Positions 15,001-21,000 are shown, counted from the whole stretch's first letter. The stretch is 63,865 nt of DNA, filler included, from an uncultured Thermoplasmatales archaeon (GCA_964517155.1; 5 parts of 5 records of this genome joined end to end with filler, not necessarily neighbours in it); one strand, 5' to 3'. Made by a program: the numbers.

Positions 15001-18000
15001 CATACTAAATACAGATGGATAAAACCATCTGAACTAGAGAGTTTTGAAGCCGTTCCACGGCTAAAAGAAGTTGTATTAAAATTATTAAAATAAACAAGTT
15101 TTTATCGGATGGGGAAGCCGTGGAGGTGGTGAGGAGAGATAGGAAAAAATTAGGAAAACTCCCCCATCCTACATTATATAATTGCTTTATAAGTATATAA
15201 ACTTTTTTATAAAAATATTAAATAAATATATTGGGACTTTTAAAATCAAACTTTTTTATCTAGAGAAATAAGTATTTTTTCTATCTTAGAAAACGTATCA
15301 TTAATAGATCCAGATGTATCAATAATCCCCCAATCATCAACAAGCATAAGTGCCTTGTTTCTAACTTTTACAAGAGCATCATGAGTCTCAAAAATCTCAG
15401 TTTCCTTACGCTCAGAAATACGACTCAAAAGCTCTTCAGGCGTTGCATCTAAAAAAAACATATACTCAGAAGTAGGAACAAAACCATAAAAAAACTTATA
15501 ACCAATTTTTGCAAGCTTTTTAGGCAAATAAGCAGTCCCAATAAGATATCTTGTCATAATAAGTGTATCAATATCCTTCCTACGATAATATTTCCTAATT
15601 GAACGCAAGACATCAAACATGTAAAAAACAGAAGCATTAAGCTTGTTTAGTTTACCTTTCCCAAGTAACGCCTTTTTTGCTTTGCGACCAAAATAATTAT
15701 CAACTTCAGGATGAGATCGCAAAACTACGTTTTCACCTAAATCTTCATATCTTTTCTTAACTAGTAATGCATGAGTATCTTTCCCAACACCATCAAGACC
15801 GTCCATTATTATAAGACGCATAAAAACCTCATAAAATAAATACAAACCAGTATAAAAATGCTGCAACAAATGGAACACTTAGATTATCAAGTCCCTTAGG
15901 CGTAAGCCCCTCAACTACTGCTGCAACAAATGCAATTCCAAGTAAAACAAGAACTACATCGCTTGACAAACTAATACCGTAATAGATTAATGCAACAACA
16001 GTTGTAATAAAAGTAAAGACAAACATAGCAAAACTGCCGATATAGCTTTTCTCATCACCAAAAACATTATATTTTTTCTTACCAAACCTAATGCCAATAA
16101 TTGATGCAAAACCATCACCATATGACATTGCAAGAATTCCTATTGCAATAATAACCATATTATCAAAAAACAAATACGCAAGAATAGTCCAAGTAATAGC
16201 ATAATAAACAAGTCCCATACTGTGCCCTGCCGCACTTGTTCTACCCTTTATAGATTTAATAGGAGTATAAGGACTCATTAAAAATGTAAAGAAAATAAAA
16301 GGACCTGCCGCAACAAAAGCCATAACCCAAGAATTATTAAAAATAGGTAGTAAAAAAGCAATATTTCCAACCATTATATGAAGAACCTTACGAGAAACTT
16401 CTGGCCATTTATCTAAAAATTTTTCTGTAATAATTAACAAAATTGCCACATAAATATAAACAAGCAAAACGCCTGATACATCGCCGCTAAGCATAATTTT
16501 TTTCCCCAATTAATGATTTTTATACCAGTAATATATAATAATATATAAAATATCTTATATAATTTACTCAAAAGTTAGATATTTACAAAAGCAGCTATAA
16601 GAAAAGCAAGAAGCCCAATAAAAATCGAAAACAAAGTAATTTTTCTAAAAAGTTTTAAATGAGGCTCTTTTTTAAAAATTAAATCAAAAGCAGTAACAAG
16701 AAGCAAAAAATCACAGATTAAAACAAGGAAAAGATAAACATAATTTCTATAATATATAGTATAATTTGCAACCAAGAAAGGAATAAAACTAAGAAAAACC
16801 GCTAAAACATAAAACAATCCTGCCAAAATATTACTTTTACGCTTTCCAATATATTTTGGAAAAGACCTGGTGCCTTTTTCTTTATCACCTTCATAGTCTT
16901 GCACATCCTTCATAATTTCTCTTCCGGAACCTGCAAGAAAAGCAATAAGTGCTATAATGTAAATCGCAGGATCGATAGTAAAAGAAAAATTATTTGAATT
17001 TATTACTGCAACTCCGCCAAAAACAAATGGAATTGCCATAACATATGCAATATAAAAATTACCGATAAATTTGATTTTTTTCATATGAGAATCATAAAGA
17101 ATAGCAAACAAAGCAGTAATCAGAGCAATAATAAAACATGCAAAGTTTACAAAATAAGAACAAATAATTCCTAGTGGGAAAAAAACAGCAAATAATATTA
17201 GTGCAGTTTTAGGTTTTATGTCACCGCGAACAAGTGGTCTGTCATTGCGTTTATTTACAATATCTATATCTAAATCAAAATAATCATTTAAAGCAAAAGT
17301 ACTTGCTTCGAGAAATAGTGCTGTAAAAAATGTTAGAATAAATTTATCCCAAGATGGAAGAGCTGCTCCTTCTAAAGCTATAACTGATCCTATAAGTATT
17401 CCTAAAAAAAGCATTACTCCATGTTCAAGGCGCATAAGTTCCCAGATTGCTTTAATTTTTTTCATAGAGATATCTCTTATTTATTTGGCTCAATTATAAC
17501 TTTCATCGAGTCTTTTGCATCAGCAACAAGTTTGAATCCTTTAGCAGTTTGACTCATAGGCAGTTTATGCGTAATCATCTCGTTTACGTCTAGTTTTTTA
17601 TCTTTTAAAAGCTTGATTGCATCAGTTATATCTTTGCCTGCCCCAGCATATGTAGAATAAGTTTTTACTTGTTTATTCCACAAATCAAAAAAGGGTATTG
17701 AAACATCAACACCAGGTGGAGTCATTGCAAACCAAAGAATTATTCCACCAAATTCAACACATTCAATTGCTTGTCTAACAGCAGATGATACTCCTGCGCA
17801 TAATATCACAAAATCTGCGAGGCATCCATTATTGTTTTTCTTAATCTGCTCAGCAATATTTTCTTTTGCATTAATTACAACATCTGCACCCATTTTTTTA
17901 GCAAGTTTAAGTCTATAATTATCAATATCTGTTGCAAAGATTTTCTTGGCACCATCTGCTTTTGCAAGTTTGATATTTAAAAGACCTGCCATACCTGAAC

Positions 18001-21000
18001 CTAAAACAAGAACAGTTTGTCCTTTCTTATAATTTGCAACTCTAAAACCACGAACAACACATGCAAGAGGCTCTACAAATGTTCCTTCATCATCACTTAC
18101 AGAATCAGGTAGCTTAAAAGTTCCAAAGCGAACGTTTATCTCAGGAACACGTAAGTATTGTGCAAAACCACCAGGGTAAAATTTAGTAGATTTTAGTGTT
18201 GCACAGAGTGTTTGTTGATTATTTTTACAAAAACTGCATTTGTTACATGGTACATGATGAGTTACAAAGACTCTATCGCCTTTTTTGAATTTTTTAACGT
18301 TTTTACCTGCTTTTTCAACAACACCAGATATTTCATGGCCAAGAACAATTGGTGCCTTTTTTACTCTGTACCATTCCATGACATCAGAACCACATATGCC
18401 ACTGGCAATTACTTTTACAAGTAATTCATCATCTGATATCTCAGGAATTGGTTGTTCCTCAATTCTAACATCATTATTGTTATAATACATTGCAACTTTC
18501 ATGCTATCCACCGTTATTACTAACTATTTAATAGATTTTACCAAAGATAAGAAATATAAAAACAAAATATTTATTATTAATTAAAAGATGTATCTAAATA
18601 TAATATGGGCGTGAGAGAAAAATGGGATTATTTGGGCCACCTAAGATAGCTATGACGCTGGAAAAATATAATTTTAACCCTGGCGAGGTTGCAAAAGGAA
18701 CAATTACTATAAATTTGAAAAAACCAACGTATGCAAGGAAACTAGAAGTACATTTAATGGGTGTTAGAAGAGTAAGAAAAGGAAATTCACACAGCTGGGA
18801 AACAGTATATGATTTTGAGATGCCTGTAAAGGGTGAAAAAGATTACCAAAGTGAAACAGTTCCTTTTGAATTACAAATTCCTCCAGATATACTTATGGCT
18901 AGGAGTCAACAACAAGCAGTGCAAGATTCTCTTGAAGACAAACTAGGCTCTGCAGGAAAATTTATTAGCGCTATATCAGTTGGAGCTGGCGTTACAAATT
19001 GGAAAATACGAGCACAACTTGATGTCCCAAAAAAACTTGATATAAAATATACTCAAGACATACAAATTTATCCTGCACAAACAAATCAACAAGGCGGCGT
19101 GATTTAAAGAAGATTATTAAATAAACAGAAGAGTTTTATCTAGTTAAAATTAATTGGAATGGTAAAAAGCCAGAGATAAAACAGATATTTAACTATAACA
19201 ATAATTTTATCTTTTCTCAAAACCTCTCTCACCATGTTAATATTTATCACTACTTGTTTATATATTTGTCGTGACAAAATAACAAAATGAAAAATATTTA
19301 CATTGAACGTAATCTTTTTATCCTTTCATCAACAGGCGGATGTGTAGACCAAACAGAACCTTTTGAACTACTTTTGAAAGGATTTGAAATATACAGAGGT
19401 GCGACAGTTTTAGAGCCTTTTGGTTTTGTAGTAGGCTGATCCATCTTTATTTTTTCAAGTGCCTTTGCAAGTCCTTCAGGGTTACGAGTAAGATAAGCAC
19501 CTGTTGAATCTGCTAAATACTCACGCCTACGAGATATAGCAAGATAAGTAAGCCTTGCAAATATCGGTGCAAGAATCGCAAATAAAAAAGCAATAGCAAT
19601 AATTATACCACTGCCATCATTTCTACGACCGCCTCTACCAGCACCACCAAAAAACATTGAATAAAACACAATTTCAGATAAAAGAGAAATCGCACCAACT
19701 ACAGCGATTGTAACAGTTGCAACACGAATATCATAGTTTTTAATATGACTCATTTCATGAGCTATCACACCTTCTAATTCTTCCTGATTTAACTTACGCA
19801 ATGCACCTGTTGTTACACAAACTACGCCTTCAGAAGGATTTCTACCTGTTGCAAAAGCATTAATATACTCTGAATCTTGAACATAAACCTTTGGCATTGG
19901 AAGACCTGATGCAATGCTCATTTCTTCAACACGATGAATTAAAAGTTTTTCTTCACGAACATTTGGATTTGCAGGACGTGCTTTAGCAGCACTAAGAACA
20001 GTTTTAACAGATATTGAATACATCAGTAAAACATAACATATGCCAACAGGCAGTGCAAAAATCAAGGCAATGAGAATATTTCCTCTGAAAAAAATGATTC
20101 CAAAAGCAAGAATTACACCAATAAACAATAAAGCCATTAAAGCACAAACTAAAACTGTATTTCTCTTATTTCTTCGAATATGATCTTCTACGAGTATTTT
20201 TTTTTCCATAACCACCAATAAATAAAATAAAAAAGGGTTTTTAGAATTTTACTTGCGGTACTTCCCTTGCTGCATCTGGTATCTGTAGCATTTCACGAGC
20301 TTTTTTCTTCATAAAACCTGCAAACCATTTACCAGGTATTGTTTCAACAAGGTTATTGTAACTTAACACAGAATCATTGAAATGTTGTCTTGAATATGCT
20401 ATTTTGTTCTCTGTATTTGTAAGCTCATCTTGTAGGTTTAAAAAATTCTGATTAGCTTTAAGATCAGGATAGTTTTCTGACACTGCAAAAAGTGTTTTAA
20501 GCGCTCCAGTAAGCATGTTATCTGCGTTAATGTTTTCTTGAGGCGATTTTGCATTTAATAAAGCAGAACGAGCCCTTGTAACATTTTCAAGAGTTTCTTT
20601 TTCATGCTTCATATAACCTTTTACAGTCTCCATTAAATTTGGAATTAGATCTGCTCTACGTTTTAATTGCACATCAATTTGTGCCCAAGAGTTATCTATT
20701 CTGTTTTCCAGCCTTATTATCCTGTTGTAATATCCAAAAAAGATAAACACCAAAAACAGGACTATAATCAATATTATTATTCCTAGTATCCATTCAATCA
20801 TTTAGTTATGCCTCCTTATTAATTTTAGGTTAAATACTATTTTTTATTTAAAACTATCGCGAGATAAAAAATAAAAAAAATTATTTTTTATTTTCTTTAA
20901 ACATATCATATGCTTCTTTAGCAGTATACTTTTTGTGAACAATTGCATTTACTGCCTTAATCATACCAACAGGATCACTACTCTGAAATACATTACGGCC

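Follow-up and report, generated by a model that had tools for sequence, protein, structure and literature searches.

In the window analysed here, a stretch of 63,865 nt (filler included) from the genome of an uncultured Thermoplasmatales archaeon (G000), four genes follow one another on the minus strand. These are g00024, a Zn-dependent medium-chain dehydrogenase (ADH; 17477..18502; PF08240 and PF00107), g00023, a UbiA-family prenyltransferase of the PRK12884 clade and probable DGGGP synthase (16575..17465; 296 aa), g00022, a multi-pass membrane protein homologous to SEC59/DGK1/VTE5-type (COG0170) lipid-alcohol kinases (15829..16494; 221 aa), and a Tmk-like P-loop kinase paralog, a candidate second (prenyl-phosphate) kinase (15246..15821; 191 aa). 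The first-pass annotation had located the first three of them, and the open reading frames agree in position and strand: that of g00022 spans 15829-16509, with an ATG at 16494 that yields the 221-aa product identical to the database protein P0001, and that of the ADH spans 17477-18511, with an ATG at 18502. The intergenic gaps measure 11 nt between the ADH and UbiA genes, 80 nt between the UbiA gene and g00022, and 7 nt from the stop of g00022 to the start of the Tmk-like gene. For the second kinase, whose absence had been raised as an objection, there is now a candidate in this translationally coupled paralog directly downstream. The conserved unit is made up of three genes, namely DGGGP synthase, g00022 and the Tmk-like kinase, and the ADH lies outside it.

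The protein g00022 belongs to the SEC59/DGK1/VTE5 family (COG0170) by detectable sequence relationship and is the sole member found in G000. As had been reported, neither Pfam nor NCBIfam gave a row for it, here with the threshold relaxed to E≤1, and the names recorded for its relatives were found again: those 74-96% identical are called 'phytol kinase', 'dolichol kinase', 'SEC59/DGK1/VTE5 family protein' and also 'phosphatidate cytidylyltransferase'. In the ESM-Atlas, the clusters closest to it are cyanobacterial ones labelled 'diacylglycerol/polyprenol kinase' and 'phytol kinase', the first matches scoring 0.95-0.96, in line with the match to Synechocystis VTE5 reported earlier. Among 35 sequences, ten residues are invariant (R35, K36, H39, G126, D127, G134, G153, E195, D203 and N204), and D127 and D203 would fit the two catalytic Asp noted for Sec59-like domains in the relevant passages of PMC5898192; the same two residues may correspond to the CdsA metal ligands. 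In the predicted model (pLDDT 92.9), nine helices reach 15 residues or more and one further helix is short. The C-terminal half superposes on CdsA (4q2e; Z 5.5, rmsd 3.2, 110 aligned) and CarS (5guf; Z 4.8, rmsd 3.0, 104 aligned), members of the same superfamily, with weak scores within the chance range for helical bundles, and 4q2e is also the best Foldseek match of the model (prob 0.99, E 0.13). Overall, these data support placing g00022 among the lipid-alcohol kinases that form a CTP-dependent branch within the CdsA/CarS superfamily, with a predicted activity to match.

Regarding g00023, the UbiA profile PF01040 scored 151.5 bits, and two NCBIfam models stayed below their cut-offs (NF009523 'prenyltransferase', 264.1 bits against 269; NF009521, 171.7 bits against 296). 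Its best solved relative is the DGGGP synthase of M. jannaschii (6m31, E 2.2e-36). The orthologs are the top DGGGPS-model match in three of three family genomes (G002, G008 and G047), and in all five Hadarchaeota genomes no other gene matches the model strongly. Thus, g00023 combines the UbiA fold with a DGGGP synthase as closest characterised relative, and its orthologs rank first on the model. In G000 itself, it is not single-copy by this model, a second gene scoring as well (C23:1147-1962; 173.4 vs. 171.7 bits), and 17 UbiA genes were found there in all. On these similarities, g00023 is probably a DGGGP synthase.

The adjacency of g00022 to a gene of this type was confirmed, a UbiA gene lying directly upstream on the same strand in 19 of 20 family loci (20 of 48 genomes sampled). 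Synteny within the family is little proof, because the whole neighbourhood is collinear. However, the same-strand trio of UbiA, g00022 and Tmk-like genes also appeared in all seven Hadarchaeota loci, and since the flanks there are unrelated, the link between g00022 and DGGGP synthase exceeds local synteny. Moreover, DGGGPS-type genes are divergently adjacent in four loci of another family. Against the link, the adjacency is absent from 17 of the 26 assessable loci outside families f1 and f2 and the Hadarchaeota. In quick trees, the Hadarchaeota sequences fall together with those of family f2 (support of 0.98 in the Tmk-like tree), so conservation across two phyla probably reflects one block transfer and not independent retention; an exchange with Hadarchaeota seems to have taken place for both kinase genes at least. 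The ADH, named alongside these genes in the first-pass annotation, does not belong with them: it was present in 17 of 20 family loci and in none of 40 loci outside the family, and in family loci such as L026 and L031 an oppositely oriented AIM24 gene comes between it and the UbiA gene. Its best NCBIfam model, threonine dehydrogenase, scored 193.9 bits, far under the cut-off of 458.

The Tmk-like protein matches the Pfam thymidylate kinase profile (PF02223) with 100.9 bits for a cut-off of 27, while its score for TIGR00041 (51.8 bits) falls under the dTMP-kinase equivalog cut-off of 83.25. The predicted model (pLDDT 94.9) adopts the Tmk fold, with a TM score of about 0.8 to the enzymes of A. 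aeolicus, P. falciparum and human (Foldseek E 4e-10 and TM 0.79 to 4s35). A better-scoring Tmk (140-177 bits) is encoded elsewhere in five of five single-contig Thermoplasmatota and four of five Hadarchaeota genomes, and an archaeal CMP kinase in all five genomes checked; therefore, the Tmk-like gene is not the housekeeping kinase. In all 23 Tmk-like proteins compared, the lid arginines R134 and R138, the Lys of the P-loop and, in the DRY motif, the Tyr and the phosphate-binding Arg (R91) are kept as in thymidylate kinases. Unlike in those enzymes, V or I stands in place of the F-x-x-x-R Arg and V or T in place of the DRY Asp in 23 of 23, and His37 and Asp7 are invariant; the F-x-x-x-R Arg is kept in five of five canonical Tmk paralogs. 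In M. tuberculosis TMPK, Arg74 hydrogen-bonds thymine, according to the section of PMC3619541 that deals with it. Carrying the residue roles over from that enzyme by motif spacing, we infer that the thymine-recognising Arg is missing and that the acceptor site may be altered throughout the subfamily, which is counted in favour of the two-kinase reading set out below. On the other hand, the thymine-stacking aromatic residue and the P-loop Asp are retained, which counts against it. At E≤1e-30 there are 76 representatives, compared with 11,783 at E≤0.001, which makes for a small and distinct subfamily, and both of its named relatives carry the NCBI label 'hypothetical protein'.

The coupling between the two kinase genes was tighter than that with the UbiA gene. 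Among assessable loci, the Tmk-like gene stood directly downstream of g00022 in 20/20 of the family, 26/28 of other Thermoplasmatota and 72/75 public ones. Furthermore, a strong Tmk-like gene was found in 70 of the 72 genomes with a strong g00022 homolog in a phylum sample of 301 genomes, the two exceptions being contig ends. The two gene trees, quickly built, show broadly matching branching, and in one genome (G131) both genes are interrupted by stops. Some observations count against a strict association: g00022 is absent from 8 of 78 genomes with the Tmk-like gene, the two are unlinked in seven genomes of one genus, and of the five complete genomes tested with a Tmk-like gene, four lacked g00022 (profile search, E≤0.001) and the fifth kept only a 51-residue remnant.

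Fusions were also found. Of 42 longer g00022 relatives, 26 are fused to DUF92 (PF01940, COG1836, arCOG02245), the family of the phytyl-phosphate kinase VTE6, and their N-domains are 32-37% identical to g00022; Sec59-like/DUF92 fusions are noted for Methanosarcina in the corresponding passage of PMC5898192. In one further relative of the 42 (P0122, 73% identical to g00022), the fusion partner is a Tmk-like domain; this lone sequence comes from one 3.6-kb contig, and the fusion could be an indel artefact. VTE6/DUF92 and the Tmk-like protein thus occupy the same place beside or fused to a g00022-like domain, and the same job is proposed for both (prenyl-P to prenyl-PP), the analogy being one of role only: the Tmk-like partner is a soluble P-loop kinase of Tmk fold, without the unrelated membrane domain of DUF92. 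No PF01940 match was found anywhere in G000, and DUF92 was not detected where the same-strand trio occurs (f1, 0/35; f2, 0/4; Hadarchaeota, 0/5). However, DUF92 coexists with the pair in families f3 (11/11), f6 (8/9) and f8 (36/36), and a clear-cut replacement of one by the other is therefore not seen.

A homolog of g00022 was present in 48 of 60 other family genomes, and in 23 of 25 high-quality genomes when G000 is counted. Across the phylum, this one query matched 88 of 301 genomes at E≤1e-5. The pair with the Tmk-like gene was also found in 99%-complete genomes of another family and in lineages whose record titles name a soda lake and hot springs, and one relative of the Tmk-like gene is named from Methanomethylophilaceae. 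Because it occurs in such non-sediment lineages, the pair by itself is no marker for lipid recycling in sediments, contrary to what had been suggested. CarS (PF01864) was not found in G000, which is 90.8% complete, and its replacement by g00022 was considered and rejected: g00022 gave no PF01864 match at E≤1, and CarS was detected in 56 of the 60 other genomes of the family, among them both congeners and three single-contig genomes in which g00022 occurs as well. The earlier statement that g00022 does not replace CDP-archaeol synthase therefore stands.

Taken together, the observations suggest a route for free prenols with two kinases. With CTP as donor, the membrane-embedded g00022 would act on a free isoprenoid alcohol of C20 type (geranylgeraniol or phytol) and yield its monophosphate, and the soluble Tmk-like protein from the same transcript would add a second phosphate from ATP; the resulting diphosphate would be consumed by DGGGP synthase and possibly by other UbiA enzymes. 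The family of g00022, the order of the genes and its conservation, the paralogous nature of the Tmk-like gene and the fusions in other lineages are established by the data above. The C20 substrate is suggested by the DGGGPS gene context, and we infer both substrates, the nucleotide donors and the delivery of the product to DGGGP synthase. In this scheme, the Tmk-like protein, of the unrelated nucleoside-monophosphate-kinase fold, would take the part that VTE6/DUF92 plays in plants and cyanobacteria. That g00022 acts as a kinase of isoprenoid alcohols in concert with the ether-lipid branch appears fairly likely to us. The complete two-step salvage into DGGGP synthase, in which the second kinase would be the Tmk-like protein, is a possibility that we place a little short of an even chance. 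More tentatively still, a Tmk-fold paralog recruited as prenyl-phosphate kinase might form, with a VTE5-type prenol kinase and DGGGP synthase, a portable module, and would offer a non-homologous alternative to VTE6 for the second step of prenol salvage.

Other functions were weighed for both kinases. If g00022 were a dolichol or long-chain polyprenol kinase for the lipid carrier of N-glycosylation, its neighbours would be co-transcribed housekeeping genes of no shared pathway. Many of its close relatives are named 'dolichol kinase' by JGI, it is alone in its family in G000, and the archaeal family arCOG01881 is annotated as dolichol kinase in the part of PMC5898192 devoted to it; the same part ties DUF92 to UppS and polyprenyl metabolism, and g00022 could have assumed that role in the window's order, from which DUF92 is missing. 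Yet a patchy distribution fits such a function poorly, the 66 neighbouring proteins of 21 loci include no recurring glycosylation gene (a single GT4 gene was seen), the recurring neighbours are DGGGPS and the kinase, and among named clusters those of cyanobacterial polyprenol/phytol kinases come closest. Moreover, no free-alcohol kinase is known to be required on the archaeal routes to dolichyl phosphate, and this function is considered unlikely. A phosphorylation of archaeol or digeranylgeranylglycerol by g00022, regenerating archaetidic acid as a counterpart of the yeast CTP-dependent diacylglycerol kinase DGK1, is quite improbable, even though DGK1 is part of the same named family and the product, being that of DGGGP synthase itself, would enter at the DGGGPS/CarS node and explain the adjacency. 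In one genus (L173 and L068), a PAP2-like lipid-phosphatase gene after the pair would fit a phosphatase/kinase cycle on the lipid phosphate, but these matches are weak, below threshold (21 bits vs. a cut-off of 27.2) and confined to few loci. Such an activity would leave the tightly coupled Tmk-like kinase without a role, while the fusions with DUF92 in other lineages speak for two phosphorylations in succession, and the nearest named clusters, again, are those of polyprenol/phytol kinases.

The Tmk-like protein could also be a dTMP or other NMP kinase that is merely co-transcribed with a genuine prenol kinase, the second phosphorylation being done by another enzyme or not needed. Its Tmk fold and Pfam score, the retained stacking aromatic residue and P-loop Asp, its persistence without g00022 in several complete genomes and a canonical Tmk adjoining the pair in one locus (L160) would agree with this. 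Nevertheless, it seems rather improbable given the better Tmk and the CMP kinase elsewhere in the same genomes, the V or I at the presumed thymine-binding Arg, the score under the NCBIfam dTMP-kinase cut-off, the distinctness of the subfamily, and the adjacency, co-occurrence and matching trees with g00022.

The two-kinase salvage proposed here has its closest parallels in VTE5/FOLK (phytol/farnesol kinase) of plants, slr1652 of Synechocystis and PolK of Plasmodium, all of them small multi-pass membrane proteins of the SEC59/DGK1/VTE5 family like g00022, and each performs the first step of two-kinase free-prenol salvage in its organism, as summarised in the sections of PMC10849223 and PMC9782597 on this pathway. 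In contrast, g00022 is archaeal, has no PF01148 match, and is clustered with DGGGP synthase instead of tocopherol or chlorophyll genes. The first-pass annotation had presented it as the first archaeal isoprenoid-alcohol salvage kinase, a novelty that could hold for the function only, since the family is already catalogued in archaea as the 'dolichol kinase' arCOG01881/COG0170 (e.g. HVO_0053). The main text of PMC5898192 mentions neither 'thymidylate' nor 'UbiA' nor 'DGGGP'.

Salvage of free prenols, from alcohol to monophosphate to diphosphate, has been assigned to genes only in plants and cyanobacteria, and in Plasmodium for the first step only. In archaea, both kinase activities were shown decades ago, as cited in the passages of PMC9385802 and PMC10849223 on this topic, which name no archaeal genes for them, and the second kinase is called missing outside plants in the corresponding passages of the reviews PMC9782597 and PMC10849223. 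A compact conserved operon, in which a prenol-kinase homolog and a distinct soluble kinase lie beside a geranylgeranyl-diphosphate consumer, makes the question testable. If the proposal is true, the nucleoside-monophosphate-kinase fold would gain a new class of substrates, searches for the second kinase in other organisms would have a template to follow, and the way in which isoprenoid alcohols re-enter ether-lipid synthesis in archaea would be shown.

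The best-supported unit at this locus comprises a DGGGP synthase, the prenol-kinase homolog g00022 and a thymidylate-kinase-like (Tmk-like) protein, the last of which was not mentioned in the first-pass annotation. Four genes run in one direction along positions 15246-18511 of the minus strand. These are g00024, a Zn-dependent medium-chain dehydrogenase (ADH; 17477-18502, -; PF08240 and PF00107) whose top NCBIfam model was threonine dehydrogenase with a score far under the cut-off, g00023, a UbiA prenyltransferase (16575-17465, -), g00022 itself (15829-16494, -), with 221 aa counted from its ATG and identical to database protein P0001, and the Tmk-like ORF (15246-15821 from its ATG, -). 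The previously reported places of the first three genes were confirmed, and the intergenic gaps measured 11 nt (ADH-UbiA), 80 nt (UbiA-g00022) and 7 nt (g00022-Tmk-like). The whole locus falls within the first piece of the window (contig C1 of the source genome, G000). The joins at 21058-21157, 29597-29696, 56296-56395 and 60885-60984, marked by pairs of 44-base N runs, separate different G000 contigs, so that gene order across them is no evidence of linkage. Elsewhere in the window, a small protein with borderline arrestin-N/Spo0M-like matches (18622-19107, +; PF00339, 24.9 bits, at the cut-off) was a conserved neighbour of the ADH in many loci of the family. Moreover, a sulfate-activation and sulfation cluster at 7106-12940 (-) encodes PAPS-reductase-type (CysD-like), EF-Tu-type GTPase (CysN-like), DHH phosphoesterase, APS kinase, sulfotransferase and Na/sulfate symporter proteins, and in one fetched locus (L043) a sulfotransferase gene was located directly upstream of the g00022 homolog.

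To begin with the family, 48 genomes had a match, and loci were fetched from 20 of these. UbiA was directly upstream of g00022 in 19 of them, the Tmk-like gene directly downstream in all 20, and the ADH was within the locus in 17. The UbiA linkage formerly counted in 15 of 16 genomes says little alone, since the whole family neighbourhood is collinear (lemA, htpX, ADH, UbiA, g00022, Tmk-like, nudix, purQ). Outside the family, 40 loci were fetched from the phylum sample, and in 29 of them the g00022 homolog was strong (phmmer E<1e-20). Of these strong loci, 28 were assessable and 26 had the Tmk-like gene after g00022 (exceptions, L054 and L067), and none of the nine assessable loci among the 11 weak homologs (E>1e-17) had a Tmk neighbour. 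Among 26 non-family loci, five had a co-oriented UbiA neighbour and four a divergent one, these four neighbours belonging to family f8 and having the DGGGPS model as best match (198-224 bits for the two scanned). The ADH was absent from all 40 non-family loci, which rules it out as a pathway member and removes it from the operon originally proposed. Among the best 80 of 149 public loci, overlapping partly with the sampled genomes, the Tmk-like gene followed g00022 in 72 of 75 assessable cases and UbiA preceded it in 54 of 73. Furthermore, all seven Hadarchaeota loci (L134, L137, L138, L142, L148, L150 and L151) presented the complete trio co-oriented, with g00022 between UbiA and the Tmk-like gene. 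In three of them (L142, L148 and L150), a Pfam scan showed unrelated flanks (adenylosuccinate synthetase, AAA kinase, M29 peptidase and GT4 transferase).

No consistent neighbour besides UbiA was found among 66 neighbouring proteins from 21 loci, where sporadic ones were a HAD phosphatase upstream (three loci), an H+-pyrophosphatase (two) and a weak tocopherol-cyclase match (one). The HAD-family genes are divergent from and upstream of g00022 homologs lacking a UbiA neighbour (L048:5311-5943, L155:4292-5017 and L162:4274-4942), while the tocopherol-cyclase match (L067:6833-8068; PF14249, 29.4 bits, cut-off 26.6), odd in an archaeon, adjoins a g00022 homolog with no Tmk neighbour. The Tmk-like gene of one f8 genus has a further co-oriented gene behind it (L173:3050-3745 and L068:7311-7937), encoding a membrane protein whose match to PAP2, the lipid phosphate phosphatase model, is weak at 21 bits and misses the cut-off of 27.2.

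The co-occurrence of the two kinase genes was read off two match tables for the phylum sample of 301 genomes, where a strong g00022 homolog appeared in 72 genomes and a strong Tmk-like gene (E<=1e-55) in 78. Both were present in 70 genomes, the two with g00022 only (G147 and G276) being cases of contig ends. Their coordinates place the two matches immediately next to each other in 62 of these 70 genomes and apart in seven, all from one f8 genus, and in G004 the g00022 match next to the Tmk-like gene is a fragment. Eight genomes had the Tmk-like gene without g00022, one of them at a contig edge, and a profile search of five complete ones retrieved no g00022 at E<=0.001 in four. In the fifth, G284, an intact Tmk-like gene is immediately preceded by a g00022 remnant of 51 residues (C1:1154919-1155672), and in G131 stop codons interrupt both genes alike (C12:191220-192243); these are snapshots of the loss of the pair. 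Moreover, FastTree trees of g00022 and the Tmk-like protein, quick ones with neither rooting nor topology test, showed similar branching, and Hadarchaeota appeared beside family f2 in both (support 0.98 in the Tmk-like tree), which suggests that the two genes may have moved together between Hadarchaeota and Thermoplasmatota. Taking the shared gene order together with these trees of the two kinases, a transfer of all three genes as one block is probable.

The Tmk-like gene was found to be a second paralog in most of the genomes compared. Five single-contig Thermoplasmatota genomes had two PF02223 genes each, scoring 99-113 bits beside g00022 and 140-151 bits elsewhere, and four of five Hadarchaeota genomes showed the same pattern (104-111 bits for the trio copy vs. 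168-177 bits), the fifth (0.8 Mb) having the trio copy only. An archaeal CMP kinase scored over its cut-off in all five genomes tested. For relatives with a better Tmk and a Cmk gene elsewhere, the Tmk-like protein was thus rejected as sole Tmk or as CMP kinase. In G000 it is the only gene over the Pfam Tmk cut-off, and the canonical Tmk may be unassembled. An alignment of 23 Tmk-like and five canonical Tmk sequences revealed residues kept in all 28, namely G13 and K14 of the P-loop, T16, R91 and Y92 of DRY, R134, R138, F144 and E145. All 23 Tmk-like proteins differed from the canonical ones in having V or I in place of the Arg of F-x-x-x-R, V or T in place of the Asp of DRY, an invariant His for the Glu of 'EP' and Asp for the Glu of 'EG'. 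In the M. tuberculosis TMPK, as described in PMC3619541, Phe70 provides the stacking surface for the thymine, Arg74 and Asn100 its hydrogen bonds, and Arg95 the contact with the phosphate. The 70/74 and 95/100/103 spacings of that enzyme fit the Tmk-like motifs, from which we infer the residue mapping. On this mapping, the catalytic and phosphate-binding parts would be retained and a base-recognising residue lost, since the former residues are kept and the base-recognising Arg is replaced. The structure, predicted with confidence (pLDDT 94.9), is that of a Tmk (fold match at TM about 0.8). The subfamily is small, with 76 representatives at E<=1e-30 vs. 11,783 at E<=0.001 (1.84 billion searched), and the lookup of ten of them gave two named clusters, 'hypothetical protein' (a Methanomethylophilaceae MAG and a Bathyarchaeota MAG) and 'dTMP kinase' (JGI).

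As for g00022, no Pfam or NCBIfam match was found even at E<=1, and a search of 5.8 billion proteins gave 1,428 relatives at E<=0.001. Ten positions (R35, K36, H39, G126, D127, G134, G153, E195, D203 and N204) were invariant in an alignment of 35 homologs with identity down to 20%. The AlphaFold model, a confident one (pLDDT 92.9), is nearly all-helical. A sequence search against solved structures gave no real match, and Foldseek with this model gave none at E<=0.001, its first match being the CDP-diacylglycerol synthase 4q2e (probability 0.99, E 0.13, TM 0.40). With VIA-align, the C-terminal half could be superposed on two enzymes, 4q2e (Z 5.5, rmsd 3.2, 110 aligned) and the CDP-archaeol synthase (CarS) 5guf (Z 4.8, rmsd 3.0, 104 aligned), both Z values being weak for helical bundles; these likenesses agree with the family assignment without proving it. 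CarS (PF01864) was not found in G000 (90.8% complete) and was present in 56 of 60 other family genomes, including both congeners. The earlier view that g00022 does not replace CarS holds, as both genes occur together in family genomes, including the single-contig G002, G008 and G047.

The UbiA protein g00023 is probably a DGGGP synthase of a distinct clade. Its best solved relative was the M. jannaschii DGGGP synthase 6m31 (E 2.2e-36), and its top NCBIfam models were NF009523 'prenyltransferase' (264.1 bits, cut-off 269) and the DGGGPS model NF009521 (171.7 bits, cut-off 296). The trio ortholog was the top NF009521 match in G002, G008 and G047 (165-182 bits, next matches 76-118) and the only strong one in five Hadarchaeota genomes (187-197 bits). 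A second DGGGPS-like gene in G000 (C23:1126-1971, locus L084) scored as high on NF009521 as g00023, at 173.4 bits. The model fits this gene from its opening 46 codons on, yet its N-terminal helix lacks a start codon, there being no ATG, GTG or TTG before position 1264, which points to either an unusual start or decay.

Taken as a pathway, a C20 isoprenoid alcohol would be phosphorylated twice in succession by g00022 and the Tmk-like protein, the latter in the role of the plant phytyl-phosphate kinase VTE6, and the resulting diphosphate would be used by the DGGGP synthase. Animal phosphomevalonate kinase is a precedent for a Tmk-like fold acting on an isoprenoid phosphomonoester. Three rival readings compete with this one, two of them concerning the substrate of g00022, which could be a dolichol kinase or a DGK1-like archaeol kinase. 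The source names of its closest relatives include phytol kinase, dolichol kinase, SEC59/DGK1/VTE5 family protein and phosphatidate cytidylyltransferase, and in the ESM-Atlas its nearest neighbours are cyanobacterial clusters named 'diacylglycerol/polyprenol kinase' and 'phytol kinase' (scores 0.94-0.96). According to the third, g00022 is a prenol kinase and its neighbour an unrelated nucleotide kinase. The Tmk-like proteins retain the aromatic residue at the stacking position and the Asp of the P-loop, which argues against a changed acceptor. Moreover, the occurrence of the Tmk-like gene in genomes without g00022 indicates that it can do without this partner and speaks against the pair being obligate.

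Fusions bear on the two-kinase pathway as well. Of 42 longer g00022-related proteins, 26 carried DUF92 (PF01940), the family of VTE6, with the g00022-like part N-terminal in the three sequences read. In another of the 42, P0122 (415 aa, 73% identical), the g00022 C-terminus runs directly into a Tmk-like domain; this fusion was seen once, on a contig of 3.6 kb. A 536-aa 'open frame' of G282 was discarded as a fusion, since the genome is GC-rich and the frame no more than a long run free of stops. DUF92 appeared in 245 of the 301 phylum genomes and was not found in f1 (0/35), f2 (0/4) or the Hadarchaeota genomes (0/5). This distribution is suggestive, yet not complementary to that of the pair, strict complementarity being ruled out by coexistence in f3, f6 and f8. 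The DUF92 fusion is known from Methanosarcina, according to PMC5898192. In a literature search that reached neither subscription papers nor the PMC5898192 supplements, no paper was found naming an archaeal geranylgeraniol kinase or geranylgeranyl-phosphate kinase gene, or tying COG0170 to a Tmk paralog or DGGGPS. The two kinase activities themselves have reportedly been measured in Sulfolobus acidocaldarius, as cited in PMC9385802 and PMC10849223, neither of which gives the archaeal genes.

The suggested use of g00022 as a marker for lipid recycling in sediments was not sustained, as the pair was present in 99%-complete genomes of other families and in lineages with record titles pointing to soda lakes and hot springs. 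Finally, 17 UbiA-family genes were found in the 1.59-Mb G000 genome, several as tandem clusters (e.g. C40:11521-15356, C56:10660-16038, C10:22934-26052 and C59:11464-13090). Its relatives G008 and G047 had 16 and 18 over the cut-off, and two f8 genomes 2-3, a striking expansion of membrane prenyltransferases in G000 and its relatives. A prenyl-diphosphate salvage module could also serve these expanded UbiA enzymes.
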